IMG/VR virus record: IMGVR_UViG_3300032249_000373
Coordinates: 24,261-88,260 of that record
Length of the DNA: 64,000 bases
DNA from: a virus
Reading direction: 5' to 3' (one strand)
Below, piece by piece: positions 9,728-30,405 of this stretch (position 1 is the stretch's first letter; every line of letters begins with the position of its first letter). Made by a program: the position numbers and the translations under genes. A model generated the notes under the pieces. The model searched no databases. It worked only from the letters and a program-made list of their open reading frames with translations, and was not told where the DNA came from.

Positions 9728-10894
9728 ATGTCAGAACAAGATAAAGATATAGCCAAGAACTATCCAGGTTCAGGTGGCTCAGGAGCAGAACTTAACTCCC
9801 AGGGTTCACTCGTATCAGGTGGTGTTGGTGGTGCTACAGGTCTAGACTCAGCAGCAGCGTCTGTTGGATCACAACTTGGTAACACAGCAACAGCAAACTT
9901 CGGTGTAACAACTGGAGCAAATGCTGTAAACCCAACTGGAGTTGCAGGAGGTATTCTTGCACCAGAACAGGCTCGTCGCTTCATCGACTACGTGTGGGAT
10001 GCAACAGTACTCGCCAAGGATGGTCGTAGAGTTACGATGCGTGCTAATACAATGGAAATCGAAAAGGTTAACGTTGGAGAGCGTGTTATTCGTGCAGCAG
10101 CGCAGGGTAGTCCAAACTACACAAACGCTGGTGCAACATTTACAAAGGTAGAACTTACTACAAAGAAGATTCGTCTTGATTGGGAAGTTTCTACAGAATC
10201 ACTAGAAGACAATATTGAAGGTGGAGCACTTGAAGATCATCTAGTTCGCTTGATGACAAATGCATTCGCAAACGATATTGAAGACCTTGCTATCAATGGT
10301 GATGGCGCAACAGGTGACTTCTTGTCAATTATGCAAGGTTTCGTAAAGCAAACTACAGATTCTGTATATTCAGGAGGACAGTATGTAAACGACGCTCATG
10401 AGTCAGTCGTTACTGTCGCTAATGATGCTTGGACACCAACAGTAATGCAGAACATCATTCTAGCAATGCCACGTAAGTATCGTGCAGTTAAGTCGAACCT
10501 AAAGTTCTACGCTGGTACAGATGCTTTCCAGGGTATCGTTTCAAATAACGGTACACTAGGCGATGCAATCGCAGAAGCATTTGCTGGTCGCCCAGCAGGT
10601 ACACCTGCAAACCGTCAAGATTACCTTGATGGAAACGCACAGACAATTGGTAATGCACGTACAACTCGTGTATTAGGAATTGATGTAATGGAAGTTCCTT
10701 ACTACCCAGATGGTTTCGTCGACTTGACATTCCCATCAAACCGTGTATGGGGATTCCAGCGTGATATTACTGTAAACCGTGAATACAAGCCAAAGAAGGA
10801 TACAATTGAATACACAGTATTCGTCCGCTTTGGTATTCAATGGGAAGAACTAGATGCAGTTGCTTATGCAGATGCAAACTCTACTTCTGAGTAA
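9728..10894 (+). CDS. Major capsid protein (HK97 fold)
   Basis: GGILAPEQARRFID, LTTKKIRLDWEVSTESLEDNIEG, FANDIEDLAINGD; AGGAGGT SD; highly biased codon usage; follows protease. Confidence 0.92.
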   Translation: MSEQDKDIAKNYPGSGGSGAELNSQGSLVSGGVGGATGLDSAAASVGSQLGNTATANFGVTTGANAVNPTGVAGGILAPEQARRFIDYVWDATVLAKDGRRVTMRANTMEIEKVNVGERVIRAAAQGSPNYTNAGATFTKVELTTKKIRLDWEVSTESLEDNIEGGALEDHLVRLMTNAFANDIEDLAINGDGATGDFLSIMQGFVKQTTDSVYSGGQYVNDAHESVVTVANDAWTPTVMQNIILAMPRKYRAVKSNLKFYAGTDAFQGIVSNNGTLGDAIAEAFAGRPAGTPANRQDYLDGNAQTIGNARTTRVLGIDVMEVPYYPDGFVDLTFPSNRVWGFQRDITVNREYKPKKDTIEYTVFVRFGIQWEELDAVAYADANSTSE

Positions 10895-14800: not shown

Positions 14801-15502
14801 ATGGCAACAAGAATATATAAATCCGACATTATTACATTAATGGATGGTGAACAGATAGAAATTTATCCTCTCAAGATTAAGTATCTTAGAGAGTTTATGG
14901 AAGCATTTCATTTAATAAAAGAATCAAAAAATGATCTTGAATCAATATCCTATTTGTCAGAATGTGCAAGAATCGCTATGCAACAGTATAAACCAGAAAT
15001 TGCAAAGACAATTGAAGAACTAGAAGATCATGTAGACTTACCAACAATATATAAAATAATTAATATCGGTGGCGGTATTAGCGTTAATGGAGAAGTAGAT
15101 GAACCAGTAAAGGAACAAGCCTTAAAAGAAGATACTATGGGTAGTGGCTGGGATGAGTTAGATTTAGCAAAACTAGAGTCTGAGATATTTTTGCTTGGTA
15201 TCTGGAAAGACTATCAAGAACTAGAGGCAAACCTTTCAATGCCTGAACTAGTTGCAACAATTGGATCTATTAGAGATTTAGACTATCAAGAAAAGAAATT
15301 TCTTGCAGCAATTCAAGGTGTAGATTTAGACGGGGAAACAAATAAAGATAAAGGTCAAAAAGAATGGGAAGACATGAAGGCTAGAGTATTTAGCAAGGGT
15401 CAAACCAGTGATAGCAACGATGTCCTGTCTTTACAGGGTGCAAATGCACAAAAAGCAGGGTTTGGTATAGGGATGGGTCTTGACTACGAAAACCTAATGT
15501 AA
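14801..15502 (+). CDS. Tail assembly chaperone, GT-like (G domain fused in frame to a T-like domain)
   Basis: Between tail tube and TMP; N-terminal ~95 aa is paralogous to the 15548..15877 protein. Promoter TGGTAAAAT 14785-14793 lies 7 nt upstream, so probably leaderless. Confidence 0.6.
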   Translation: MATRIYKSDIITLMDGEQIEIYPLKIKYLREFMEAFHLIKESKNDLESISYLSECARIAMQQYKPEIAKTIEELEDHVDLPTIYKIINIGGGISVNGEVDEPVKEQALKEDTMGSGWDELDLAKLESEIFLLGIWKDYQELEANLSMPELVATIGSIRDLDYQEKKFLAAIQGVDLDGETNKDKGQKEWEDMKARVFSKGQTSDSNDVLSLQGANAQKAGFGIGMGLDYENLM

Positions 15503-15547: not shown

Positions 15548-15877
15548 ATGACTACAACAGTTCACGAAGAAAAAATAATTACCCTGATTGATGGAACAAA
15601 GATCAAGGTAAGACCTCTCAAGATCTCACTTTTACGTAAATTTATGAAGAAGTTTGAGGGCTTGGGGGCAGTCCAAAATGATAACGATAAGTCTATGACA
15701 CTTTTAATTGAGTGTGTAGCAATCGCTATGGAGCAGTATAAGCCAGAGTTGGGGGAAAGCATTGAAAAACTTGAAGATGTAATTGATCTTCCTACAGTTT
15801 ATTCAATCATTGAGGCAGCATCTGGAATTAATCTTTCAGATACCGCTTTACTTGCTTTAGCACAAGAAGAACTATAA
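15548..15877 (+). CDS. Tail assembly chaperone, G-like
   Basis: Directly before TMP; IITLIDG...PLKI..LR.FM...IAMEQYKPE...DLPTVY.II shared with upstream ORF. Own promoter TGCTATAAT (15514-15522) and GAGAGGA SD. Confidence 0.65.
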   Translation: MTTTVHEEKIITLIDGTKIKVRPLKISLLRKFMKKFEGLGAVQNDNDKSMTLLIECVAIAMEQYKPELGESIEKLEDVIDLPTVYSIIEAASGINLSDTALLALAQEEL

Positions 15878-15897: not shown

Positions 15898-18800
15898 ATG
15901 GCTGGAGATACAAATAGCAATATTTTTATAAATATTGATACTTCACAAGCAATGGCGCAACTGCGTTTACTTGAGAAGGAACTAACAGCCCTTAACCGTT
16001 CCTTAATCGTTGGAACAAAGGCTGCAGCAGCAGCCCAAGCAAAATACGCACAATCACTTCTACACAACGTAAATGCCACTGGTCAGTGGACAGCATCAAT
16101 GACAAGAATGAGCACTGCCTCTGAGCAGTTTGCTACAAACCTAGATAGACAAAGACTATCACTTAAAGAATATTTTAGATATGGTGCAGCATCTACCAAG
16201 ACATTTGGAAAGATGTTTGGTCGTGAGTTTGACACTATTGAAAAACTTGTAGATAAGCGTGTAAAGACTCTACAGCAACAGTATGTTCAATTAGGACGTG
16301 ATGCCCAGGGTGCAATGAACTCTATGAAGTTCACTCCAAAGTCATTGAACATGCAAAACTTAACTACACAGTTAATGATGGCAACGCAGCGTCAGCAAAT
16401 AATGAATAAACTTATTGATGATGGATCTACAAAACTTTTAAACTTTGGTAAAAATACACAGTGGGCAGGTCGCCAACTTATGGTTGGTTTTACAATTCCA
16501 CTTATGCTTTTTGGTGCTCAGGCAATAAAGGTATTTAAAGAAATTGAAACACAAACTATTAGATTTAAAAAGGTTTACGGAGATATTTTTACAGATCAAG
16601 GAGCAACGGACGCTGCCTTAAAAAATATTCGTGCACTGGGAGATGAATATACAAAATATGGACTTAAGGTTTCTGACACAATTAAGATGGCTGCAGATGC
16701 AGCAGCAGCAGGTTTTTCTGGCAAGGGATTAGAGCAACTTGTAGAACAAACAAATAAACTTGCAGTACTTGGTGGAGTTACACAAGAAAAAGCATTAGAG
16801 ACAACCATTGCACTTAAGAATGCTTTTCAGATTGACACTTCAGCAATGGCTGGAACAATTGACTTCCTTAACGCAGTAGAAAACCAAACAGTTGTAGCCC
16901 TTGAAGATTTAACAGAAGCAATTCCAAAGGTTGCACCAGTTATTCAGCAACTCGGTGGTGATGTAAAAGATTTAGCATACTTCATGGCTGCAATGCAAGA
17001 AGGTGGAATTTCTGCAGCACAAGGTGCTAACGCACTCAAGTCAGGACTTGCATCTTTAATTAACCCAAGTAATGCTGCATCTAAAGCAGCAGCAGCCGTT
17101 GGAATCAATATTAAGGGAATTGTTGAAGCCAACCAGGGAAATCTAAGAAACACGGTGACTGGATTTGCACAGGCACTACAACCACTAACTGACCTTGAGC
17201 GTTCAAGAGTTATTGAAAAGGTTTTTGGTAAGTATCAGTTTGCTAGAATTTCTGCACTTTTAAATAACTTAGGAAGAGAAGGAACTCAGGCTGCTCGTGT
17301 TCTTCAACTTACTAATGCATCAGTAGAAGAACTTGCAATCTTGAGCCAACGAGAATTAAAGACTCAAGCAGATTCACCAATGAACAAGTTGGCAGCATCT
17401 ATAGAAAAACTTAAGGTTTCTATTGCTCCAATTGGAGAGTTGTTTGCTAAAGTGTTTACTCCAGTAATTGAATTTATTGGAAGAATGGCTGACAAGTTTA
17501 ATAATCTTCCAGAAGGAATAAAGAAGGCTATTGGAATTATAACTGTTGTAGTTGGTGGATTAGGACCTATATTCTTAATGACATTTGGTTTGCTTGCAAA
17601 TGCCGTGGCAAACTCGGTTAAGGGCATTCAGGTTCTTCGTAAAGGCTATCAGCAACTTGCAGCGGGATCAACTGATGCAGCATTAAAGACACAATATTTA
17701 TCACAAGAAGAATTAGAAAATATTTCTATAAGTAATGCTCTTTATTCTAAGCACCAACAACTCTCTTCAGCATATGCACTAGAAGCATCAGCGTTAGCAT
17801 CACTAACAAGTGTTTACTCTAAGGCTAACGCTTCTATGGGAGCCTTTGCAGCAAGTAATCCAGGAATGTTTATGCCAAGAGGAGGATTACTACTTCCAAA
17901 GAAATTTGCGGGAGGAACAACATCTGTTCCAGGACCAAAGGGAGCAGGAGATGTAATTCCAGCAATGCTATCACCTGGAGAATCCGTTATTCCAGTAAAG
18001 CAAACACAAAAGTATTCAGGGTTTATTAATCAGATTATTCAAGACAAGGTTCCAGGATTTTTTGCTGGAAGAGTTGGAGCCTTGCCATCATCTCCAAATA
18101 TTGTAAGAGGCTCATCTGCAAGAGGACCTATTGGACCTATGGCTCCAGTTATTCCAATTGGAGCAAGGCCAATTTCACCATCACTCCCTGGAATTAGGTA
18201 TTCTCAAGAAGGAGACAAGGTTCGTGTTTTTGCTGGTGATACATCTTTCCTAATTCCACTAAAAGATATTAGTACATTTAAAGTTAAACTTGAAGAAAAT
18301 GAAGCATGGATGAAGTCACCAATCCATGGAAGTGGAAATAAAAATGTAAGAAAAGATAATACAGAACAAGCACTAATTAAAGCAATTACAAGACCACTAA
18401 GTGGAGGTAAAAAGCCTTCACTACGTGAACAATCAGAAATTATTAAACCAGGAGATATATATACTCGTCTTCCAAAAGCAGGTGCACAAAGAAAGAGTAA
18501 TCAAAACCAAGATATTGCAGATAAGAGATTTAGGGCATTAGTTAAATCAAAAAATCCTCATCTTGCAAAACTACAAAATTATTTACAAAATGAAGAAAAG
18601 GTTTATCTTGAAAGAGTATTAGGTCCAGATGTTGTACAGTCTTTAAAGGGTTTTGATGCTAAGAAACTAACCCCAAGTCACATTAGAGAAGTGAGATCTC
18701 AGAATCGCACACCTGAAGATTGGGCACCAAGTAAAATTGCAAGAGACTGGGCATGGTTTAACTCTGCACTAAGAGGAACTAAATTTGGAAAAGTTAAGGG

Positions 18801-21800
18801 TGGGCATCCAGTAAATGCTGCACAAGCAAGAGAACTTCTTGATAATCTAAAAATGACTCCATTTGAAAACCTTCCAAATGATAAAAAGGCTCTTCAAACT
18901 GTACTTGAATATAGATTAAATCGCCAACCTTCATATTACGATGACTTTAGATTTATAGACAATGCAATGATGAAGGTTAATCCAGTAAAGTTGGCTGGTG
19001 GAGTTGTTTCTCTTGGAATGCCAATTCCATTTAAAAAGGTACAAGCACAACGTGCAATGGCAGAAAAAATAGATGCACAAATTAAGGAAAGTAGATTTAA
19101 GAATCTTCCTGTTACAGACACTGGAAGAAAAATACAAAAACTTGGTGGATTTAGCGTTGGTTCAATTTCAAGAGCGGTCAATGGAGTTTATCAATTACCA
19201 AATGGTAGAACTGTAGTTTACAAGGCTGTAGAAAGTGAAGAGGCTGCTTTAGCAGAAATGCGAATGTCTACCTTAATGAGAAAGGGTAGCGAACTTGATA
19301 CTCCATCAAATCAATCAATTAAGGTTATTGCAGATCCAACAGACTTAAGTAAACAAAGAAAAGTCCTTGTTATTGAATCAGACTATAACCCAAGATTTGC
19401 TAATCCAACTGGAGAGTTTACACCAAAACAATTTATTAAACAAACCCTAGCCTCTGGTATTCGTGGAGATAAGGATCTTAAGACAGACAATGTTAGTGGT
19501 AACGATGTAGTAGATATGAGTAATGCTGGAGTATTCCCGACTGCATCAAATAGAGTTAAATATGCAGATGAGATGAAGTCAGTAGAAGAGCAACTTTTAA
19601 TAAACTTTGGAGCAGTAAAGGGTGGAGCATCAAAAGACTTTTCAAGATCTGTTCAAGGAATTGCTGCAGAAATGGGTTTTACAAAATTTAAAAACGCAAT
19701 GCTTAAAGAAATTGAAGAATCTATTCCTAGATATAAAGCAACAATTGATACATTTAAGTTAAACCCAAGAGAAAGAGAACTTTACGATGCTGTAGTTGCT
19801 CGTTTAGAAGATGCTAAAAAAGCAGACTGGAAGAAGATTTACAATGCTGCTGTTGGTGATATTCCAGCATATGCAAATGGAATTGTTTCAGTCCCTGGCC
19901 CAAAGGGTGCTGGAGATATTCAGCCTGCAATGCTTTCACCAGGTGAAGCGGTAATTCCTGCAAAACAATCTGAAAAGTATATGCCACTTATTCGTTCAAT
20001 GATTGCAGATAATGTTCCTGGGTATGAAGCATCAAATGTTGAATGGGATGGTAGCCCAAGATCACTAAGACCAGGTGGAAAATATGCAGGACCAACTCCT
20101 ACACCAGGTATGGATTCTTGGGGAGATCCAATTAAAGAACCTACACCAACAAAGACAAGATTAAAAAATGCAATTACTTCAGTTGTAAGAGACAAAGATA
20201 TTAATGCAGTTAAAAACTTTGCAGCAGAAGCAACAAAGGCTGGTAAAGAAACCAAAATTGCAGGAAAAGCAATGGAAGGTGTAAGAAAGGCTGGCTCTCG
20301 TGTTACAGCATCCTTTACTGGTACTGAAAAAGCAGTAGATGGAACAACGGATGCACTTGGAAAAGATAAGACTCGTGGATTCCGTGGATTTTTATCAGGG
20401 TACGGAAACGTATCTCAAACAGTTACAAATGAAGATGGAACTACAAGAGCAGCAACCGCTGCAGAGCGCACCAATGCACGTCAAATGAACAGAATGAACT
20501 TTACACAAAAGATGATGCCTATGCAGATGGCTGGAATGATGATTCCAATGGCTGCAGGTATGGTTGCTCAAAAAAATCCAGATGGTGCTATAGCAAAGAA
20601 CATGGATGCAATTATGATGTTGTCTATGTTAACCATGCTTTTGCCAATGCTTAATAGTCCACTTAAATTACTTGCAGCAACTGCAGTTGGTCTTACTATT
20701 GTGTTTAAGATGCAGTCAGCAGCAATTAAAAAGAATATGATTGAAGGACAAAAGCAAGCAGAAGCAATGAGCATGACAACCAAAAATCTTGAAGAACTTG
20801 GCAAGATCACTGGAAGAGTTTCTATAACTCAAACTGCTGCAGCAAAAAGAGCAGGAAGAAACACTGATATTTCTCCAGTAAGCATGGACTTTGGATCTAA
20901 TATTATATCTAGTAGCGAATTTGGCAAAAACCTTAAAAAGACATTTAATAGCGCAATAGTAGACCTAGGAGAAGGAGCAGCAGTTAACTCACTAGTTAAT
21001 CAACTAGGAACTGCAGTATCTCAAGGAGTTTTAAATTCAGAGCAAGCACAATCAATTGCGATTGCACTTACAAGAGATTTAAAAGATGCAAGACTTGAGG
21101 TTAATGTAAGAGGAAGATTAATTCAACTTCTTGGTCCTAATGGAAAAAATGTTTTAGATAATCCACTACAAGTACAACTTGAATTAGTTACCACTGGAGA
21201 AAAGGTAGCACAGGCTGCAATTGAAAACCTTAATAAAGTTGCAAGACAACAAAAGGGTATTAATACTATAGGAGAAGGTTTACAACTAGCAGGAGGAACA
21301 GTTGGCGGTGCTTTAATTGGAGCAAGAGCAGGAAGCCAAGCAGCAAGTATGGTTGCTGGAAGAGGATTAATTGCACAAGAAATGGCAATGACTGGCGCTA
21401 AGGGTGCAGGAGTTCTAGGCAGAGTAGCATCAGGAGTAAGAGTAGCACGAACTGCAGGACTTGTTGCTAGTGGAGCAGCAACGGCAACAGGAGTTGGAGC
21501 ACCTTTTGGAGCAGTTGGTGCAGCAATTACAGCAGTTATTACTGGCGGTATTGATCTAGCAATTAGAAACTGGCAAAAGGGTAAAGAAAAAGCAGTAATA
21601 GCAAAAGCAGCAGGTGTAGTTCAAGGACTTGTTTCACAAAATATAACTGCTTCACAAGGAAGTATAGACGCATTAACCTCAATCTTTGATACATCAATTG
21701 CAAATCTTGAGTTAAAGAAAAAGACTTTAAAGACAGACAAAGAACGAGCAGCAGTTGATTTAGAAATTGCTGGACTAGAATCTAAAAAGCAGTCTGGTCT

Positions 21801-24800
21801 ACAAACATTAAGACAAAAACAAGCAAAGATGCTTGAAGATGTTTCTTCAAACTATGATCAAGTTTCAGGTGCAGACTTTCTTGAAAAAATTAGTCCATTT
21901 GGTTCTGGCCGTGGACAAGTTCGTGATAAATATATGGAAGCATTTGCAGTTGGAATGCAAGATAAGTTTAAAGATAATGCACCACTTAAAGCACAGGCTG
22001 CAGCGCTTCAGTCACAACTTGACCAAATTGGTGATGATAAGGTAACACTTGAGATTTCAACCTTAGTTACTTCAGATGTTTTAACTCCTGGCGAGGCATC
22101 TGTATTAGTTAGCACTTTAACCAAGACTGGCGGAGACATAAAGAAAAATCTAAATGCACTTGTGTCAGTTCAAGGAACAGAAGGCGTTCAAAGATTATCT
22201 ACAATTCTAACAATGCTTCCCAATGAAGATAATCAAAAGACCCTTGTTCTTGCTGTTAGAAACCTAAATAAAGCAGATGCAGATGCAACATTTAGTTCAA
22301 TAGAAGAACTTGGAAAAATTCCAGATTATATTGGAATTAAGTTAGAAATTGAAACAGAAAAAAATGATCTGCCAAGAATTAAAGCACGAGGAAAAGAAAT
22401 TGAAGCACTTAAAAAGCAATTCCCTAATGGACAAGTTACACTTAAGACTCTTGTTAAGATGCAAGAAGAAGCAGGTGGAGTTGGTAAAAACCTTACTCTA
22501 GATTCTGCAATCAAGCAGTGGAGCGAGATAAGCAAACTTGATAAGAATGTTCAACTTCAAGCAATTTTAACTATTGGTTCTATTGAATATAGCGATAGTT
22601 TTGATAAAATATTAGATAGAGAATTAGAGGCTGACTTCTTAGAAAGAAACCCTAAATTCCGTGCAACTGCTGGAAGAAGCAGAACTGGTGAAAGATTAGC
22701 AACTACAAAGGTAGATCCAAAGGAAAAAGCAAAAGCCCTTGCAGAATTTAAAAAGAATGCAACAAATATAGAAAAAGCAAAAACAGAAGCACTAAATAAA
22801 ATAAGAGAAGAACTTTTCCCAACAGCCCCTGTTAGTGGAGCAGTTGTTCCTGGCGCTACAACTCCAAAGGGTGATGGCCCAACAAGAGATGATTCATTCC
22901 TAAACGATCTTGCTCAAAGACTTAAGTTAGTTAAAGAGGGTGGATTCAATGCTCTTAAGCCATTAGAATCTTTAAGAAAATTCCTTAAGGATGGCGGTAA
23001 GGATTCAATAAACCCAGGCCTTGATGCACAGGCTGGAGCAATTAAACAAATAGAATCAGCAGCAAAGACTGCTGGAATTTCTATTGATAAAGACTTCATG
23101 GAAATTATTAGAGGCTTAGATGCAGAACAGTTTAAGTTGTGGTCAGAAACATTATTTGACATTGGCAAGAATGGAAGAATAACAGCGCTAAAGGATGACT
23201 TTGTAACCATTAATGAAGGATTCCGCAAAGCAACAATTGGTGGATATATTCAAGATGTAAAGGATGCAAGTAAAGAAATTGAAAACCAAGTTACAGCGCA
23301 TCAACTTTTAACAAAAGAAGGATATAACTCACTTGAAATTCAAAAGATATTACAGAACGCAACTCTAACTGCAAAGATTGCTGCACAAGGAGGACTAAAA
23401 GCCACTAAGGAAGAACAAGCAGAGTTAAACAAAGAAATAGAAAAGACTATTAATCTTAATTATCAACTAAGTATGACTAAACTTGGTGATAATATTTCAG
23501 AGACAAAGATGCAGGTTGAGGCATTTAAGAGGCTTACTGCTGCTGGGGTAAAGCATGAAGTTATTCTTGAAATATTAAAGGATAAGAATAATGCTTTTGC
23601 AATTGCTTCAGCCGATGCAACTGTAAATACTAAAGATAAGTTTGGTGATTTAATAAATAAGACTAAGGAGTATTCTGATCTTCTTGAGTTAATTGCAAAA
23701 CAAACAAAAACTTTTGAACAAAAAACACAAGATGCTATTGATGCAAACATTGGTGCACTTGACCTACAGGCTAAGACATTACAGAATCAGTTTGATTTAG
23801 CAAACTTTGAATTAAAGGCAAAGATAGTTGTTGCAGAAGATGCTGTTCAAAAGGTAAATGATGATATTCAAAAACAGCAAGATAAGATTGATAAGATTAA
23901 TTTTGAACTTAAGTACGACTCAAAGATTGGTCAAAATCTTCTTGATGACATCCAGGAAAATATTAACGATGCCCAAAGAAAAATGGAGATTGATTTTGAT
24001 AGACCACTTCAGGCATTGTCTGATAGATCAGCGGTATTGTCAAATGACCTAACTTTAATTGATAAGGCTACAGAAGCAATCAATGAGAAATATGATGCTC
24101 AAGAAAAGGCATTACAGACAATATCTGAACTTAATCAAGAAATTGCTGCACAAGAGCAAAAGAGAATTTCTCTTGCTGACGCATTGTCTCAGGGTGACAT
24201 CTCTGCAGCAGCACAACTAGCAAATGAAATGAGATCTACTGCAGCAGATGCAGCAAATCGTAGATCTGGAGAATTTCTTGCAGCAGCAAGAAAGGCTGAA
24301 ACAGAGGCCCTTGTATCTTCAAGTGGTATGACAAAGGCACAAATTGAAGCAGAACAGTTTAGAATTAGCCAGCAGTCTTATGCTCTTGAACAACAAAGAA
24401 AAACTATTCAATCACAGATTCTTTCATTAGAGGATCAAGTTTATAATATAACAGAATTAAGAGAAGTAAAACTTTTAGCAATTAGAGATGTTGAAACTGT
24501 AATTGATGGAATTAAGGCAAATCAATTATTTAATGCACAACAAGTATTAGATAGATTACAGAATGAACTTGATGCTAATCAAAAAATACTTGATGCAAAA
24601 CTTCTTGCAATTGATAAAGAAAAACTAGGATGGGAATCTATACAGATTCAACTTGATGCTTATAAACTTAAGTTAGAAGAAATTAATAATGGCCCACTTA
24701 AGACTATGAAAGATATTGTTAATTCAATCACTGCAGCACTTTCACAAATTAATAATGCTAAGTATTCACCAACAAGTCCATTTGTCCCACCTGCTGCAAG

Positions 24801-25446
24801 TACTGCAACACCTGCACAGGTTACAGCAGCAACTGATGCAGCAAACGCAGCAGCAGATGCATCTGACGCAGCAAACAAAAAGGCAGAAGAAGAATTAAAT
24901 GCACAACTTGCAGCACAAGCAAAGGCTGATGCCGAAGCAGCAGCAACAAGTGCAGCACTAAAGAAAGCAATAGAAGATGCAAAGAAAGCAATTGCAGATG
25001 CAGCAAAGGCAGGAGAGCCAGCATCCAAGGCCTACATGGCTCAACAAAAAGCAGAGCAAGAGAGACTTTTAGCAATTGAAAAGCAAAAAGCACAATATGC
25101 AGCAATGGCAGCAGGATATGCATCAAGAGGTCGGCAGGCAGGCTATGCAAGTGGTGGAATGGTCAAGCCTAAGTATTTTGCGGTAGGTGGAAAAGCAAGA
25201 GGAACCGATATTATTCCAGCAATGCTTACCCCTGGCGAATTCGTAATGAGTAAATATGCAGTTGACTCATATGGTGTTGATAAAATGAAGGCTATTAATT
25301 CTGGCTCATACGAAGGCGAGAAGGTGTATAATTATAATCTAAACGTCAATGTTAAATCTGATGCAAATCCAGAGGATATTGCAAGAGTTGTTATGACACA
25401 AATTAGACAAGTTGACTCACAGAGAATTAGGACACAGAGGGGCTAA
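15898..25446 (+). CDS. Tape measure protein, multidomain (3182 aa)
   Basis: TP901-type TMP core (LNAVENQTVVALEDLTEAIPKVAPV, GANALKSGLASLINP), Ala-rich helical/coiled-coil stretches, hydrophobic Gly/Ala segments, C-terminal GTDIIPAMLTPGEFV motif; canonical position. Confidence 0.92.
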   Translation: MAGDTNSNIFINIDTSQAMAQLRLLEKELTALNRSLIVGTKAAAAAQAKYAQSLLHNVNATGQWTASMTRMSTASEQFATNLDRQRLSLKEYFRYGAASTKTFGKMFGREFDTIEKLVDKRVKTLQQQYVQLGRDAQGAMNSMKFTPKSLNMQNLTTQLMMATQRQQIMNKLIDDGSTKLLNFGKNTQWAGRQLMVGFTIPLMLFGAQAIKVFKEIETQTIRFKKVYGDIFTDQGATDAALKNIRALGDEYTKYGLKVSDTIKMAADAAAAGFSGKGLEQLVEQTNKLAVLGGVTQEKALETTIALKNAFQIDTSAMAGTIDFLNAVENQTVVALEDLTEAIPKVAPVIQQLGGDVKDLAYFMAAMQEGGISAAQGANALKSGLASLINPSNAASKAAAAVGINIKGIVEANQGNLRNTVTGFAQALQPLTDLERSRVIEKVFGKYQFARISALLNNLGREGTQAARVLQLTNASVEELAILSQRELKTQADSPMNKLAASIEKLKVSIAPIGELFAKVFTPVIEFIGRMADKFNNLPEGIKKAIGIITVVVGGLGPIFLMTFGLLANAVANSVKGIQVLRKGYQQLAAGSTDAALKTQYLSQEELENISISNALYSKHQQLSSAYALEASALASLTSVYSKANASMGAFAASNPGMFMPRGGLLLPKKFAGGTTSVPGPKGAGDVIPAMLSPGESVIPVKQTQKYSGFINQIIQDKVPGFFAGRVGALPSSPNIVRGSSARGPIGPMAPVIPIGARPISPSLPGIRYSQEGDKVRVFAGDTSFLIPLKDISTFKVKLEENEAWMKSPIHGSGNKNVRKDNTEQALIKAITRPLSGGKKPSLREQSEIIKPGDIYTRLPKAGAQRKSNQNQDIADKRFRALVKSKNPHLAKLQNYLQNEEKVYLERVLGPDVVQSLKGFDAKKLTPSHIREVRSQNRTPEDWAPSKIARDWAWFNSALRGTKFGKVKGGHPVNAAQARELLDNLKMTPFENLPNDKKALQTVLEYRLNRQPSYYDDFRFIDNAMMKVNPVKLAGGVVSLGMPIPFKKVQAQRAMAEKIDAQIKESRFKNLPVTDTGRKIQKLGGFSVGSISRAVNGVYQLPNGRTVVYKAVESEEAALAEMRMSTLMRKGSELDTPSNQSIKVIADPTDLSKQRKVLVIESDYNPRFANPTGEFTPKQFIKQTLASGIRGDKDLKTDNVSGNDVVDMSNAGVFPTASNRVKYADEMKSVEEQLLINFGAVKGGASKDFSRSVQGIAAEMGFTKFKNAMLKEIEESIPRYKATIDTFKLNPRERELYDAVVARLEDAKKADWKKIYNAAVGDIPAYANGIVSVPGPKGAGDIQPAMLSPGEAVIPAKQSEKYMPLIRSMIADNVPGYEASNVEWDGSPRSLRPGGKYAGPTPTPGMDSWGDPIKEPTPTKTRLKNAITSVVRDKDINAVKNFAAEATKAGKETKIAGKAMEGVRKAGSRVTASFTGTEKAVDGTTDALGKDKTRGFRGFLSGYGNVSQTVTNEDGTTRAATAAERTNARQMNRMNFTQKMMPMQMAGMMIPMAAGMVAQKNPDGAIAKNMDAIMMLSMLTMLLPMLNSPLKLLAATAVGLTIVFKMQSAAIKKNMIEGQKQAEAMSMTTKNLEELGKITGRVSITQTAAAKRAGRNTDISPVSMDFGSNIISSSEFGKNLKKTFNSAIVDLGEGAAVNSLVNQLGTAVSQGVLNSEQAQSIAIALTRDLKDARLEVNVRGRLIQLLGPNGKNVLDNPLQVQLELVTTGEKVAQAAIENLNKVARQQKGINTIGEGLQLAGGTVGGALIGARAGSQAASMVAGRGLIAQEMAMTGAKGAGVLGRVASGVRVARTAGLVASGAATATGVGAPFGAVGAAITAVITGGIDLAIRNWQKGKEKAVIAKAAGVVQGLVSQNITASQGSIDALTSIFDTSIANLELKKKTLKTDKERAAVDLEIAGLESKKQSGLQTLRQKQAKMLEDVSSNYDQVSGADFLEKISPFGSGRGQVRDKYMEAFAVGMQDKFKDNAPLKAQAAALQSQLDQIGDDKVTLEISTLVTSDVLTPGEASVLVSTLTKTGGDIKKNLNALVSVQGTEGVQRLSTILTMLPNEDNQKTLVLAVRNLNKADADATFSSIEELGKIPDYIGIKLEIETEKNDLPRIKARGKEIEALKKQFPNGQVTLKTLVKMQEEAGGVGKNLTLDSAIKQWSEISKLDKNVQLQAILTIGSIEYSDSFDKILDRELEADFLERNPKFRATAGRSRTGERLATTKVDPKEKAKALAEFKKNATNIEKAKTEALNKIREELFPTAPVSGAVVPGATTPKGDGPTRDDSFLNDLAQRLKLVKEGGFNALKPLESLRKFLKDGGKDSINPGLDAQAGAIKQIESAAKTAGISIDKDFMEIIRGLDAEQFKLWSETLFDIGKNGRITALKDDFVTINEGFRKATIGGYIQDVKDASKEIENQVTAHQLLTKEGYNSLEIQKILQNATLTAKIAAQGGLKATKEEQAELNKEIEKTINLNYQLSMTKLGDNISETKMQVEAFKRLTAAGVKHEVILEILKDKNNAFAIASADATVNTKDKFGDLINKTKEYSDLLELIAKQTKTFEQKTQDAIDANIGALDLQAKTLQNQFDLANFELKAKIVVAEDAVQKVNDDIQKQQDKIDKINFELKYDSKIGQNLLDDIQENINDAQRKMEIDFDRPLQALSDRSAVLSNDLTLIDKATEAINEKYDAQEKALQTISELNQEIAAQEQKRISLADALSQGDISAAAQLANEMRSTAADAANRRSGEFLAAARKAETEALVSSSGMTKAQIEAEQFRISQQSYALEQQRKTIQSQILSLEDQVYNITELREVKLLAIRDVETVIDGIKANQLFNAQQVLDRLQNELDANQKILDAKLLAIDKEKLGWESIQIQLDAYKLKLEEINNGPLKTMKDIVNSITAALSQINNAKYSPTSPFVPPAASTATPAQVTAATDAANAAADASDAANKKAEEELNAQLAAQAKADAEAAATSAALKKAIEDAKKAIADAAKAGEPASKAYMAQQKAEQERLLAIEKQKAQYAAMAAGYASRGRQAGYASGGMVKPKYFAVGGKARGTDIIPAMLTPGEFVMSKYAVDSYGVDKMKAINSGSYEGEKVYNYNLNVNVKSDANPEDIARVVMTQIRQVDSQRIRTQRG

Positions 25447-26082
25447 ATGGCTACAGCAGCGTATTTGACAGGTAGACGTAGGTATCAGCGCCCACAAGCC
25501 CTACTGTGGTCTGAGAACCCTGGCACACTCGTTAATGGGGTATACCTACCAGACGGCTATGAAGTACAAGGTAACTTTGCAGGGTCTACAGATCCAGATC
25601 TAGTTAATCAATTTCTCATTCTTTCAGACCATAATCGTGGGGAACTAAATTTTACACCAATAAGAATAGAGCAAAGACAAAGAACTATCAATGGACGTAT
25701 GCGTTCATACCACATAGCAGACAAACTAACAATGTCTGTTTCCTGGAGTAACTTGCCATCAAGGTCATATTTTCAAGATGCAGGGTTTTTGTCTACTGGC
25801 TTATCTCCTGACAAAAATACAACTGGAGAGTTTACCTCAGATGGTGGAGCAGGTGGAGTAGAACTGCTTGATTGGTATGAAAACCACACAGGACCTTTTT
25901 GGATGTTTCTAGCATATGACAAGTACTCAAACTTTGGTAACGATGACGCAGCCTATGGCCATCTTGCACAATATAATCAAATAATGCAGGTTTATATAAC
26001 AGACTTTAATTACTCTGTTGTAAAGCGTGGTGGGTCAAACCACGATCTCTGGAATATTTCGGTATCGCTGGAAGAGGTCTAA
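25447..26082 (+). CDS. Putative distal tail (Dit-like) protein
   Basis: First gene after TMP; RIEQRQRTINGRMRSYHIADKLTMSVSW. Confidence 0.55.
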   Translation: MATAAYLTGRRRYQRPQALLWSENPGTLVNGVYLPDGYEVQGNFAGSTDPDLVNQFLILSDHNRGELNFTPIRIEQRQRTINGRMRSYHIADKLTMSVSWSNLPSRSYFQDAGFLSTGLSPDKNTTGEFTSDGGAGGVELLDWYENHTGPFWMFLAYDKYSNFGNDDAAYGHLAQYNQIMQVYITDFNYSVVKRGGSNHDLWNISVSLEEV

Positions 26083-29000
26083 ATGTTTGTTAGTGAGACA
26101 TTAAAGACACATTTAGAAACATCTTCAACAGTACACTTACAGTCATTAGTTTTGGCTGAGTGGAATATGAATATGCCAGATAATATATTTAAACTTGGAA
26201 ACTACAGATATAGACCAACTGGATCAGATGTTCAATACCGAACACTTCCTTTAACATTTGATAGCCTAGATGAAGGAAATTACTATACAGGTGCAACAGA
26301 TGCCGATGTTGTTGTAGATGGAGGGTTTGATAACTCTGGAGTCCCACAACTTTTTACATCAACTAAAGAAAAAATGAAAATGATATATTCTTTAGAAGAC
26401 TGTGTAAAACCTTTTAGGCCAAGATCTGGAATTAACAAGGCATCATATTTTGGCAATAAATATTTTGCAAACTCTGGTGTATCTCTTGCAGAAAGACCAA
26501 GATACTACATGGCCTCAAGATATGACCAGTTTAAATATTGGTCATCATTTAGAACAGAGAATAATACTGAAAGAGGAATTGCAAAGAATGTATCTAATGG
26601 ATTAAATTATATTGATGATGCTGTTCCTTTTGTAGTTTATAAGGAAAAGGTTCCAGCAAACAGACTTGTAGTAAAAATGCAAACAAATGTTGGAACTGCA
26701 GACCTTGGAAATTTTATAAAAGATGGAAAAGTTTTTTCAGATCCGCTATACGGTACAACAAATAAAACAACTCCAATTAGATGGAAGATTCAATACCTGA
26801 ATGAAGACAATTGGGTTGATGCTTATTCTTTTGACGAAAATTCTGTTCGTGATGGCGGATCTCCAATTATTCCAGAAGATGGTTATGTTGAATTAGAATA
26901 CGGATTAAAAATTCCAGATGCATATAAGGATTCATATACCTTTATTGAAAAAATAGCATCTATAACACTATTGCCAGAGCAGTCGTTAAATGGAGATGGC
27001 TATCTCGTTGTTGAAAATACCAATGATCGTGGAACCTTGTATATTTGGAATGGTCTGGATGAAGAGTACGACTCTTTTGTTCCTGAGTATGGATGGATGC
27101 TTGGAACTGGAGTTTTAAACCGTTCATCAAAACTTATTACAGACCTAACAAGCCCAGATCTATTTACTAATGATGCACAAAACCAGACTACATATAGAGA
27201 ATTTGCATATCTTCGTGGCATAAGAGTTGTTGCAGAAACAATGAACAAATTTGATTCAACCTTTGATTTAATTGAGATGTCTCCTAGACTAATTGTAAAT
27301 ATATCAGACAAGGTTGTTGATTTTAATATTAAGAAGATTTTATCTGACATAGGAACTACATCTCTTCCAGTTGGACAGTTGCTTGCGTCTACTGGAACCC
27401 TATCTCTTTTTGACGACGATCAAGCATTTAATGAAAACAACACATCTAGTGTTGTTGCTAAATATATTAGAAAAAATATAAAGTTTCTTTTTTATGAATC
27501 AATCTTAGATGTTGCAGGAGATGAGTATTCAGTTCCAATTAAAACCTTATACTCAGAAGGATTTCCTCAAGCAGATGTAACTGCAGCAAAGTTGTCAATA
27601 GAGTTAAGGGACTTTTATTTCTTTTTAGAATCAATGCCTGCTCCTAGACTCCTTACAACACAGACATCATTAAGTTATGCAATATCAATGCTTCTTGATT
27701 ACGTTGGATTTAGCAACTATACATTTAAACGTGTAGCAGATGAGTCAGATCCCATAATTCCATATTTTTTTGTTGCTCCAGATCAAAATGTTGCAGAAGT
27801 TTTAAATCAATTAGCGGTATCAACTCAAAGTGCAATGTTCTTTGATGAATACAACAACTTTGTTGTAATGAGTAAAGATTATTTAATGCCAACGGCAACT
27901 CAGAGAGAAATAGATTTTGTTTTATCTGGATCAAATAATCAAACTGACTCTGGCGTTGTAGAAAATTCTACTTCTGGAAATCTTCCTAATATTATTGCTA
28001 TCGCATCACAAGATAAAAAGATTTATAATGATGGAAAAATTAACTACACAACTAGATATATTCAAAGATCTTACGGATCAATACGCCAATCAACAATGAT
28101 TGATAAAGAAAAAACTTGGATATATAAGCCATCTCTTTTATGGGAAGTTGCAGGAACAGAAAATACAAAAACAATAAACGAACTTGCTTCAAGGCAGGGG
28201 AGTTATGTATTAGGGGCAATGCCATTAAACTCAGACCTAGTTGGAACGGCACCAGTTGTAGCAGGAAATGTTCTTACAAATAATATAATTGATCTTGGAG
28301 AAAATGTTTATTGGCTAACAAGATATAACGGATACCTATACTCTAATGGAGAGGTAATTAGATATGATGCTTCAGAGTTTGATATCACTGGAATTGGCAA
28401 GGTTTGGATTAGCAGCAATCAAGAATATCAAAAGTATTTTTCATCAATACCGTTTAACGGTAAGATATATCCTACGGGACTTGTAAGAATTTATGCAACA
28501 CCAAACTATGAAACAGTAGATGGAATAACAAGACTACAGAACGGTGCTGTTGTTGACCATGGACGTGGACAGTTTGGAACTCAGATAGTTTCACATTCTG
28601 CTGGAATAAATAATTATTGGACAAATAACGATAATGTTCGTGGATTAAACATGAAGTCTCAGTATCTATTTAGTACAAAGTTAGATACTGATCTTGCCTC
28701 TACACTTCCTGCAACTACTGTTGCAGCAGCAGGAGTAAGCAATGCAGTTGCAAAACAATCAACAAGAAACAGCATTATAAAGAATTTTATGGCTACAAGT
28801 TATTTAAGTGAAACAGAAGTAAATAATTTACCATCAACCCAAACAGGAACAATTCAGTCATCAGCATTGGTTTTTAATGGTCCATCATTTAAGACAACAG
28901 AAACTCCACTAAACTTTGTATCTTATGTATACAAAAATTTAGATAATGCCTATAGGCATTTTGGAACAAGGCTAAGAATTATTGGCAAAATTGAAAACAA

Positions 29001-30405
29001 TACAACTAGAACACAGTCTCCAAATGGAAGCGTTACGTACTATCAGTTATCTGGAAACCAACCAGACCAGAATATAAATATAGGTGGTGGTTCTGGAGGA
29101 CTAGCATTTTTGTTAAATCCAGAAACAAACAATGGATATTACTTTGAAATTGTTGCACTTACTGAAGATAATATAAACTCATATCTTAAGGTTGATGAAA
29201 ATAATAATGCACAATTTTCAGTAAATAACGTTGTATTCTATAAAATTAAAAAAGACTCTTCAAACTCAGATGCAATACCAGTAAAACTTTGGGGAGGACT
29301 ATCAAAGATTATTGTTGATGATGGAAAGTTTACTGGTCAGCAAAGACTTGCGGGAGAAGAAAATTCAACGGTATATGATTTATCAGTAGAATATATTGAC
29401 ATAGGTAATACTAGAAGATTCTATCTATATATAAATAACCAATTAATAAAGGTTGTAGACGATACAGATCCTTTGCCAACATATAATAATATGGCTTTAT
29501 TTGTGCGTGGATCATCAAAGTGTATGTTTGAAAATATATACGCTCTATCTAAAAACTACAGCCAAAACACAGTGTTTACTGTAAATGAAACTTTGGGTCA
29601 GGTGTTTGGAGATAAAGAGATTGATGTTACAGAATCCTTTAGAAAGTATGCAATGAGCGGTGTTGTTCAGTCAACATATCTATCTGGAATTAGTGCACAG
29701 CAACCACCAAAGTATGACATGTATTTTGAAGAGTTTGGTTCTATTATGCGTGAATGTGAATATTTTGACATTAAGTATGATCGTGCATACCCAGCACTTT
29801 ACGCAAAACTTTCACCAACATTTAATAATATAAAAGGATACACAACATCTGGATTTTATGCAGACTCATATGGTGCAGAATTTTTAATATTTAATTCAAC
29901 AGACAAAGCCTTAAACCTAGATGAAACAACTGGAAACTTTTTAAGAATTCAGGGAATTACATTTACACAAGATACAACGCATGAACTAACCGTAGATGAA
30001 TTCTTCAAGAAACGTGGCAATCTATCTGACCCAGAACTAGTTGGAAGCACACTAACATACTCTCCATTGGTTGAAAAATCAAGATATGATGAAATAAAGT
30101 TAAGTAGACTAACATATGGAAAAAATGAGTTTAGTATTGATAGTCCTTATATTCAAACACAAGATGATGCAGATGCAATGATGAACTGGATTATAAATAA
30201 GTTAATGGTGCCTAAAAAATCTGTTGGAATGAACATATTTAGCATTCCAACTTTACAACTTGGAGACATCGTAACGATAAACTACAAAGATTCTTCTGGT
30301 TTAGATTTAGTTTCTAAAGATTCTTCTAGGTTTGTAGTTTATAATATAGAGTATCAAAGATCAGAAAGTGGACCAAACATGACAATCTATTTGAGTGAGG
30401 TTTAA
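26083..30405 (+). CDS. Large tail tip / baseplate hub protein
   Basis: 1440 aa after Dit-like gene; AEVLNQLAVSTQSAMFFDEYNNFVV hub-like segment, LamG-like insert near C-terminus, C-terminal SPYIQT...LQLGDIVTI typical of hub proteins. Confidence 0.7.
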   Translation: MFVSETLKTHLETSSTVHLQSLVLAEWNMNMPDNIFKLGNYRYRPTGSDVQYRTLPLTFDSLDEGNYYTGATDADVVVDGGFDNSGVPQLFTSTKEKMKMIYSLEDCVKPFRPRSGINKASYFGNKYFANSGVSLAERPRYYMASRYDQFKYWSSFRTENNTERGIAKNVSNGLNYIDDAVPFVVYKEKVPANRLVVKMQTNVGTADLGNFIKDGKVFSDPLYGTTNKTTPIRWKIQYLNEDNWVDAYSFDENSVRDGGSPIIPEDGYVELEYGLKIPDAYKDSYTFIEKIASITLLPEQSLNGDGYLVVENTNDRGTLYIWNGLDEEYDSFVPEYGWMLGTGVLNRSSKLITDLTSPDLFTNDAQNQTTYREFAYLRGIRVVAETMNKFDSTFDLIEMSPRLIVNISDKVVDFNIKKILSDIGTTSLPVGQLLASTGTLSLFDDDQAFNENNTSSVVAKYIRKNIKFLFYESILDVAGDEYSVPIKTLYSEGFPQADVTAAKLSIELRDFYFFLESMPAPRLLTTQTSLSYAISMLLDYVGFSNYTFKRVADESDPIIPYFFVAPDQNVAEVLNQLAVSTQSAMFFDEYNNFVVMSKDYLMPTATQREIDFVLSGSNNQTDSGVVENSTSGNLPNIIAIASQDKKIYNDGKINYTTRYIQRSYGSIRQSTMIDKEKTWIYKPSLLWEVAGTENTKTINELASRQGSYVLGAMPLNSDLVGTAPVVAGNVLTNNIIDLGENVYWLTRYNGYLYSNGEVIRYDASEFDITGIGKVWISSNQEYQKYFSSIPFNGKIYPTGLVRIYATPNYETVDGITRLQNGAVVDHGRGQFGTQIVSHSAGINNYWTNNDNVRGLNMKSQYLFSTKLDTDLASTLPATTVAAAGVSNAVAKQSTRNSIIKNFMATSYLSETEVNNLPSTQTGTIQSSALVFNGPSFKTTETPLNFVSYVYKNLDNAYRHFGTRLRIIGKIENNTTRTQSPNGSVTYYQLSGNQPDQNINIGGGSGGLAFLLNPETNNGYYFEIVALTEDNINSYLKVDENNNAQFSVNNVVFYKIKKDSSNSDAIPVKLWGGLSKIIVDDGKFTGQQRLAGEENSTVYDLSVEYIDIGNTRRFYLYINNQLIKVVDDTDPLPTYNNMALFVRGSSKCMFENIYALSKNYSQNTVFTVNETLGQVFGDKEIDVTESFRKYAMSGVVQSTYLSGISAQQPPKYDMYFEEFGSIMRECEYFDIKYDRAYPALYAKLSPTFNNIKGYTTSGFYADSYGAEFLIFNSTDKALNLDETTGNFLRIQGITFTQDTTHELTVDEFFKKRGNLSDPELVGSTLTYSPLVEKSRYDEIKLSRLTYGKNEFSIDSPYIQTQDDADAMMNWIINKLMVPKKSVGMNIFSIPTLQLGDIVTINYKDSSGLDLVSKDSSRFVVYNIEYQRSESGPNMTIYLSEV

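Follow-up and report, generated by a model that had tools for sequence, protein, structure and literature searches.

A giant tape measure protein of an uncultured siphophage with exchangeable modules, including a predicted kinase-like domain, between copies of a repeated unit

The window analysed here is a stretch of 64,000 nucleotides of viral DNA (IMG/VR record IMGVR_UViG_3300032249_000373, positions 24,261 to 88,260), in which a 9.5-kb open reading frame at 15898–25446 on the + strand encodes a protein of 3182 amino acids (aa; P0001). On the evidence of its sequence and surroundings this protein is the tape measure protein (TMP) of an uncultured long-tailed siphophage. The TMP contains several copies of a unit of about 60 aa, here called U, and between the two internal copies it carries two globular modules, here called M1 and K, of which K is, by predicted fold and conserved residues, an atypical protein-kinase-like domain of the CotH/PI4K/HipA-like type with a complete catalytic set. 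Sequence comparison with related TMPs showed that, from one phage to its relatives, such modules are swapped, missing, rearranged or substituted by others, and that the breaks fall at U. Our reading of the whole, to which we assign a probability of roughly 0.65, is that copies of U delimit slots with exchangeable modules and that the ejected TMP delivers enzymes. The features on which the argument rests are the following:

15898–25446, + strand: TMP gene, 3182 aa (open reading frame, PF10145, PHROG TMP families, gene neighbourhood)
15898–17883, + strand: conserved N-terminal core of the TMP, aa 1–662 (Pfam and PHROG matches; 96–100% identical in the relative P0200)
17884–18081, + strand: U1, aa 663–728, core PAMLSPGESV, end VPGF (hidden Markov model (HMM), expectation value (E) 3e-23)
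18082–18981, + strand: M1, aa 729–1028, Pro/Gly-rich linker and basic alpha+beta domain (alignment; AlphaFold2 model)
18982–19011, + strand: remnant of a U, aa 1029–1038, PVKLAGGVVS, the core of ~50 aa gone (alignments with relatives)
19012–19869, + strand: K, aa 1039–1324, predicted atypical protein-kinase-like domain (133-sequence alignment, AlphaFold2 model, fold searches)
19846–20040, + strand: U2, aa 1317–1381 (HMM span 1317–1379), core PAMLSPGEAV (HMM, E 1e-23)
25147–25341, + strand: U3, C-terminal subtype, aa 3084–3148, core PAMLTPGEFV (HMM, E 8e-22)

The repeated unit U and the modules between its internal copies

The assignment of the protein as a TMP is based on a match of PF10145 (PhageMin_Tail) to aa 244–444 with 99.6 bits against a cutoff of 33.2, on eleven PHROG TMP families that together cover aa ~16–650, and on the position of its gene between candidate tail assembly chaperone genes and distal or minor tail genes. 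PhageMin_Tail is the only Pfam domain within the 3182 aa. The original prediction, which was made from the letters of the DNA, had placed two copies of a ~55-aa unit inside the TMP, correctly to within a few codons, and a third, diverged copy near its C-terminus. Self-comparison of the protein indeed aligned aa 670–726 with aa 1325–1381 at 61% identity over 57 aa (E 1.4e-21), and the C-terminal copy matches both internal copies over aa 3086–3125 (E 1e-6 and 7e-5). We built an HMM of U from 305 copies in related TMPs. It describes a unit with the approximate consensus (K/R)(F/Y)A.GG.VSVPGPKG.GD..PAMLSPGE.VIP....KY..L......(I/V)PG(F/Y)..G, consisting of a conserved core, G..D..PA(M/L)L(S/T)PGE.V, a short helix and a terminal (I/V)PG(F/Y)xxG. 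Within the core, G, E, P, D, PA.L and V are invariant or near-invariant, and beyond the (I/V)PG(F/Y) only the x-x-G is conserved. The copies fall into subtypes by position, with PAMLSPGEAV internally, PAMLTPGEFV at the C-terminus and GPGT.TSDSIPAMLS(D/N)GEYV in the middle of some relatives. U3 ends 34 aa before the C-terminus of the window protein, a distance of 33–34 aa in most full-length relatives. Pfam holds no model for U.

The stretch between U1 and U2 had been described as globular, and the AlphaFold models agree with this description. The model of aa 1031–1385 reaches a mean predicted local distance difference test score (pLDDT) of 89.4 and displays an alpha/beta fold in two lobes, while that of aa 727–1040 (mean pLDDT 80.8, core above 90) consists of an alpha+beta domain that follows a Pro/Gly-rich linker of ~45 aa. 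The observation of repeats with modules between them is thus confirmed, and of the two modules within aa ~670–1380 one is predicted to adopt the fold of an enzyme.

This module is K. We employed an exhaustive HMMER search of 1.84 billion representative sequences with aa 727–1324 as query, which matched 160 proteins, nearly all of them TMPs of 2000–4400 aa that align just to the second half of the query. In the alignment of 133 K homologues, whose overall identity is only 27–48%, the residues G1084, G1096, K1109, E1120, Q1182, N1198 and D1206 are invariant, and D1191 and D1193 are conserved in at least 90% of the sequences. These positions can be assigned to the elements of a kinase active site, namely a Gly-rich loop (G1084/G1096), a Lys-Glu pair (K1109/E1120), a D-x4-N loop (D1191/D1193...N1198) and a metal-binding aspartate (D1206). 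When the model was compared with 48,161 PDB representatives by VIA-align, the best 50 matches were all kinases of the protein-kinase-like superfamily, headed by CotH (Z 11.3, root-mean-square deviation 4.5 over 221 aa) and including CtkA and PI4KII-alpha (both Z 9.8), MavQ (9.7), Fam20 (9.0) and HipA (8.6). Foldseek likewise listed 50 PDB matches, all protein kinases, nine of them with E at or below 0.001 and the best with 3e-4. The nearest shapes in the ESM atlas were HipA_2 kinases (template-modelling (TM) scores 0.51/0.66) and viral MuF/ADP-ribosyltransferase fusions, and language-model features of K point to a kinase as well. K shares the two-lobed fold, the catalytic Lys and Glu, the D-x4-N loop and the metal-binding Asp with the HipA_2, PI3-PI4 kinase, CotH and Fam20 families, from which it differs by an N-terminal helix and a helical C-lobe of its own. 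Sequence searches of the PDB with K and with a K profile gave nothing meaningful. Genes encoding K by itself, sought with a profile, turned up solely as fragments on contigs of 1–3 kb.

M1 behaves differently. Its domain has an isoelectric point of ~10, and R877, E900, H928, N955 and H970 are invariant in 45 M1 sequences. Fold searches of the PDB by two methods, of the AFDB clusters and of the ESM atlas revealed nothing above chance, the best scores being Z 4.4 in VIA-align, E 0.58 (PDB) and 0.23 (AFDB) in Foldseek and a TM score below 0.3 in the atlas. We considered an HNH (beta-beta-alpha-metal) nuclease in view of H928, N955 and H970, but this assignment is unsupported, as an HNH-named entry appeared at chance level only. 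Pfam, NCBIfam and PHROG gave no match on aa 660–1390 or parts of it, the language-model search returned no look-alikes of M1, its profile had no meaningful PDB match, and free-standing M1 genes were again found only as fragments on short contigs. The original description of an enzymatic cassette is supported by K, with its predicted kinase fold and catalytic residues, and unsupported by M1, which matched no fold.

At the junction of the two modules a half-repeat had been proposed at ~18990. In self-comparison of the window protein it is not significant (E 1.2), and it was the relatives that bore it out. Three of them (P0002, P0165 and P0166) possess a complete U at this position, starting with MKLA(E/N)GI(M/V)SVPGPKG and ending with ...PGF. 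In relatives with U straight before K the kinase module opens with LGMP immediately after U, and in the window protein PVKLAGGVVS is directly followed by LGMP. Since relatives hold a whole U at this junction, the window protein retains the first residues of a U whose core was deleted.

Exchange of modules among related tape measure proteins

The window protein has about 200 relatives among metagenomic giant TMPs, and we read the domain architectures among the best 150 matches. The commonest is 660 aa-U-K-U-~1600 aa-U-33 aa. Many relatives carry extra modules of 130–900 aa on one side of K or the other, some of them set off by a further U and some not, and up to five copies of U occur in one protein. 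The 100 extra segments fall into 43 sequence clusters. Their Pfam matches comprise HAD acid phosphatase (seven segments), HAD_PNKP, DUF2608, cytidylyltransferase-like, NlpC/P60 and CHAP+LysM domains, and the majority of the segments have no Pfam match. The muralytic modules are situated towards the C-terminus, in slots flanked by U, and those with a kinase or phosphatase in the N-proximal slot. In P0085 (aa 1015–1615) and its relatives, the slot that holds K continues with a segment of ~600 aa that ends in a HAD-type acid phosphatase (E 1.9e-16), an apparent pairing of kinase and phosphatase at the level of sequence.

M1 was found in several arrangements. U-M1-K-U occurs in about 24 clusters, the window included, and U-M1-U, lacking the kinase, in about 30; P0003 and P0166 have U-M1-U-K-U, and in P0004 the order is reversed to U-K-M1-U. 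We mapped the architectures of the slot on a FastTree phylogeny of 136 TMPs, computed from their N-terminal 662 aa, in which some branches are long and from which no direction of change was inferred. The slot architecture changed at least 33 times on this tree, as compared to about 90 times with shuffled labels, and the presence of K at least five times. About 30 close relatives are devoid of K, with the TMP otherwise retained and the gene order unchanged.

The clearest view of a single exchange comes from P0200. Its identity to the window protein is 96–100% over aa 1–720, drops to 23–41% over aa 721–1020 and returns to 88–98% over aa 1021–1380. The match stops right after ...DKVPGF, the end of U1, and restarts at PSYYDDFRF..NPVKLAGGVVSLGMP; the second break falls at the U remnant. 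The DNA of the two loci reflects this pattern, with 92.7% identity up to 18167, 89.1% from 18910 and no alignment between. Two alleles of M1 that are only ~37% identical thus reside in near-identical TMPs with 99%-identical flanks, which points to strong diversifying exchange as in host-interaction genes. The prediction that the repeats mark the borders of a cassette agrees with these break points, and the domain content between the repeats was found to vary among related TMPs while the flanks are conserved. In its testable parts the cassette interpretation is therefore supported.

The coding sequences of U1 and U2 are 64% identical with a longest common run of nine bases. Recombination between the two copies of one gene at present is accordingly unlikely, and since they share no more than nine consecutive bases we place the exchange between phages, not between copies in one gene. 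Two further mosaic dips, with 20–65% identity to relatives that are otherwise 86–100% identical, are apparent in the window protein. One is an Ala-rich stretch before U3 (aa 2880–3060, 24535–25077), the other lies behind U2:

20041–20397, + strand: hypervariable Pro-rich segment directly after U2, aa 1382–1500 (33–65% identity versus 86–96% in the flanks)

U in cultured phages and the possible route of the modules

With one U subtype as query, tblastn matched 1522 records of cultured phages, nearly always within the TMP gene. Mycobacterium (780), Gordonia (311) and Pseudomonas (166) are the hosts of most of them, and the C-terminal subtype added 32 records. The repeats had been regarded as linkers; they do border modules, and with this distribution they are not merely that. 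U is a widespread TMP element that probably has its own function, as a predicted baseplate-binding 'hook'. When compared to solved structures, the U profile matched two entries: gp16 of mycobacteriophage Douge (PDB 8zdo chain S), with two copies at aa 963–1014 and 1409–1472 (E 4e-26), and gp46 of Pseudomonas phage JBD30 (PDB 8rk3), with one copy at aa 1017–1056 (E 2.7e-6). U is not visible in either map, in which only the last 33–42 residues are resolved. The authors of the JBD30 study predicted that aa 1022–1066 fold into a hook built from two helices plus a beta-hairpin and suggested, by analogy with T5, that this hook fastens the TMP to the baseplate once cleavage has taken place (PMC11445458).

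Further occurrences place U beside enzymes or beside stretches of unassigned character. In gp17 of phage TM4, U occupies aa 701–750, and the mt3 peptidoglycan-hydrolase motif, which is centred on W853, follows about 50 aa further on. The Synechococcus cyanomyophage S-SCSM1 encodes, adjoining its baseplate hub genes, a 950-aa virion protein annotated as 'lysozyme' (gene 213, L001 2243–5095), in which U (aa 590–644) precedes a glucosaminidase domain (aa 697–816). Since this phage is T4-like, U is not confined to the TMPs of siphophages. The TMP of Mycobacterium phage Acquire49 (L003 831–5771) and Douge gp16 both harbor two copies of U about 380–395 aa apart. No Pfam domain was found between these copies, and the stretch may represent a module that has so far escaped recognition, in phages amenable to experiment.

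The tail lumen of such phages is filled by a trimer of the TMP, whose C-terminus lies in the hub. At infection they are expelled and insert into the envelope (PMC10038345, PMC11445458). On this background we propose that copies of U spread along the TMP delimit slots for globular modules, the N-proximal slot of the window phage being filled by M1 fused to K through the decayed U. The TMP would leave via the tail tip ahead of the DNA, and because it is expelled before the DNA, the modules would have to pass through the lumen with a loose fold or none and regain their structure in the host. Their position in the chain would determine when they arrive, with C-proximal muralytic modules coming out first and the N-proximal slot last, beside the leading end of the DNA. 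K, and the HAD phosphatases of the relatives, might then have their targets in the cytoplasm or on the membrane face and reach them right at the onset of infection. U itself would most likely be a 'hook' that docks in the baseplate or the tube lumen, as predicted for JBD30, and maybe also a site of processing, as T5 pb2 with its cleavage suggests by analogy, while its conserved coding sequence would give recombination a common footing between phages. Delivery of the modules into the host together with the DNA is suggested by analogy with these ejected TMPs. It is conceivable, though we consider it doubtful, that U functions as an address-and-release tag, so that any module joined to a U could be spliced in, each U would dock in the hub in its turn during expulsion and perhaps be cut there, and the TMP would be a programmable, ordered injection line. 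If this were true, C-terminal wall-degrading modules would exit first, and N-terminal enzymes such as K would come in with the leading end of the DNA and disarm or reprogram the host before phage genes are expressed.

Several points weigh against the proposal that slots bordered by U deliver enzymes. A folded domain of 290 aa cannot fit threefold into a lumen of ~4 nm, and storage and refolding are therefore assumed. None of the kinase models in Pfam, NCBIfam and PHROG matches K (E up to 1); fold and motifs are the sole grounds on which it is classed as kinase-like, and its activity is a prediction from them. For the other half of the cassette 'enzyme' is unproven, since neither a known fold nor a catalytic motif could be recognised in M1. 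A tblastn search with aa 660–1390 against 50,697 cultured phage genomes gave no match and hence neither K nor M1; as none of these cultured phages carries either, nothing of the cassette is known from a virion. U is poorly ordered in the AlphaFold monomer model (pLDDT 48–80), and its profile finds no T5 chain in the PDB, the T5 hook having no detectable sequence likeness to U. Behind U there is no conserved basic or other obvious cleavage residue, with K or R at +2 to +5 in only 58% of the copies.

This last point bears on an explanation in which the U units are maturation cleavage sites and each module is freed at assembly like pb2C of T5, stored in the tail and released in turn. In T5, cleavage after R1127 separates the hydrophobic part of pb2 from the muralytic domain, the fragment is kept in the tail and the new C-terminus is anchored in the hub; the JBD30 authors propose cleavage right behind the region that matches U, every module of the relatives can be written as 'module + U', and U precedes an enzyme in TM4 and in the cyanomyophage hub protein. 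Besides the missing cleavage residue, however, neither a protease partner nor a peptidase domain was found for the window TMP, and the U between M1 and K has decayed in the window protein, which would not be expected of a required cleavage site. We entertain this explanation tentatively, as a possibility that falls short of being probable; it would be a sharper form of delivery from U-bordered slots and does not contradict it.

The kinase might also act in the producing cell or the virion, on tail proteins, chaperones or the TMP itself during assembly, instead of being an injected effector. K occurs almost only within TMPs, and CotH and Fam20, which are among its top structural neighbours, phosphorylate structural or secreted proteins. 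Yet the loss of K from about 30 close relatives that keep the remainder of the TMP and the gene order indicates that it is dispensable for tail assembly, its slot also holds unrelated modules such as phosphatases and other families, and its fold is fused to MuF/ADP-ribosyltransferase proteins of the ejection type in other phages. We thus hold a role in assembly to be unlikely, and the sequence comparison argues for K as accessory cargo and not an assembly factor. Very improbable, in our estimation, is that the modules are spacers for tail length or lumen packing, with U as duplicated hub hooks and the kinase fold as a functionless relic. Tail length is set by the length of the TMP, deletion of mt3 in TM4 yields a viable phage with a shorter tail, and duplicated copies of U occur with no recognisable enzyme between them, for example in Acquire49. 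A relic would, however, hardly keep its catalytic Lys, Glu, Asp, Asn and Asp across 133 sequences so divergent in the remainder (the aspartates of the D-x4-N loop in at least 90%, the others in all), and other slots carry bona fide enzymes of the HAD, NlpC/P60 and CHAP types.

Known systems and the surroundings of the gene

Three motifs of TMPs, 1–3, were reportedly described by Pedulla et al. in 2003. TM4 gp17 resembles the window TMP in its embedded enzyme module, which is dispensable for assembly and active at DNA injection (Piuri and Hatfull 2006, PMC1796659). It differs in that the module is a small muralytic motif and not a kinase of 290 aa, that there is a single slot and that no cassette exchange at a repeated border has been described. 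T5 pb2 similarly combines ruler, membrane-inserting part and enzyme domain in one TMP, is cleaved between these parts, and expels the enzyme fragment first, while its new C-terminus docks between hub subunits (Boulanger 2008; Linares 2023, PMC10038345); its enzyme is a C-terminal metallopeptidase and multiple slots are lacking. JBD30 gp46 and Douge gp16 share U with the window TMP by sequence, but no enzyme module was recognised beside it.

The likeness to polymorphic toxin or MuF systems that the original prediction drew holds as an analogy. Polyvalent proteins and MuF-fused polymorphic toxins are likewise giant multi-enzyme polypeptides that are varied by recombination and thought to enter with the DNA (PMC5512222), and the window TMP and its relatives share with them the possession of several domains and the variation by cassette, as seen in the 43 clusters and the mosaic of P0200. 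Kinases are among the polyvalent payloads, and viral MuF/ADP-ribosyltransferase proteins hold a K-like fold; the kinase clade of PMC5512222, however, is without a C-terminal lobe, which K possesses. The carriers differ as well, being a tail tape measure here and a head-packaged MuF or portal-associated protein there, and Iyer et al. (2017; PMC5512222) nowhere mention tape measure proteins. Pfam detected neither MuF or another head-packaging anchor nor a zincin-type processing peptidase in the window TMP, and since PhageMin_Tail is its sole Pfam domain, we regard it as analogous to these systems and not as a member. The Sle1 effectors (Nagakubo et al. 2026, PMC13277306) also have a TMP-derived carrier in a tail-like tube and a functional domain that varies between species and can be swapped experimentally. 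They differ in belonging to a cellular contractile injection system of actinobacteria and not to a phage TMP, and in the C-terminal location of the variable domain.

Our literature searches brought up neither a kinase within a TMP nor cassette exchange bordered by U, an absence that is no proof; both seem to be undescribed. U itself is not new, occurring as it does in cultured phages. Before, the only enzymes known from within TMPs were small motifs for wall degradation (TM4, T5), and multi-enzyme cargo of an exchangeable kind was known from head-packaged polyvalent proteins. The window case joins both. It belongs to a large and abundant family of TMPs from freshwater phages, in which defined slots between conserved U elements take up a kinase, phosphatases, lysins and dozens of modules of unassigned function, swapped between otherwise near-identical phages. 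It offers a testable rule for finding ejected effectors of uncultured siphophages, namely to search between U units, and a candidate function for a motif of more than 1500 cultured phage genomes, as well as a natural scaffold that could possibly be used for loading chosen proteins into phage tails.

The window covers a siphophage structural module, all on the + strand, in the order portal, protease, capsid, immunoglobulin (Ig)-domain protein, two phrog_10504 genes, TMP, a gene of 211 aa (distal tail protein, 25447–26082) and a minor tail protein of 1440 aa (26083–30405). The same order is found at loci L002 and L005, and the TMP P0166 lies in a locus ordered in this way. The Ig-domain protein upstream of the TMP is likely the major tail protein. 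The two genes that adjoin the TMP gene on its 5′ side (14801–15502 and 15548–15877) both start with a phrog_10504 domain (E 3e-21 and 1e-21), and the first also has a second domain, phrog_10474. We consider them candidate tail assembly chaperones, the PHROG family carrying no assigned function; by sequence they look like a chaperone pair on two genes, with no programmed frameshift.

Beyond the modules, the hydropathy scan of the TMP revealed hydrophobic segments at aa 194–213 and aa 540–571 of the N-terminal core, and two further features were noted:

20608–21567, + strand: Met-rich hydrophobic helices (aa 1571–1610) and a Gly/Ala-rich hydrophobic stretch (aa ~1800–1890) (hydropathy scan)
25342–25443, + strand: C-terminal 34 aa (length compared with the resolved ends of the JBD30 and Douge TMPs)

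By analogy with what has been established for other TMPs (PMC11445458, PMC10038345), the hydrophobic regions at aa 1571–1610 and ~1800–1890 are likely the membrane-inserting parts. The C-terminal 34 aa may form a trimeric plug seated in the baseplate hub, since their length matches the 33 and 42 C-terminal residues resolved in the JBD30 and Douge TMPs, respectively. The closest cultured phages are Streptomyces siphophages of ~130 kb, with 43% identity in the capsid and 29% in the TMP N-terminus. This likeness of the capsid (gene at 9728–10894) is seen despite a G+C content of only ~37% in the window, which fits a phage of low-G+C Actinobacteria, and an actinobacterial host is plausible.

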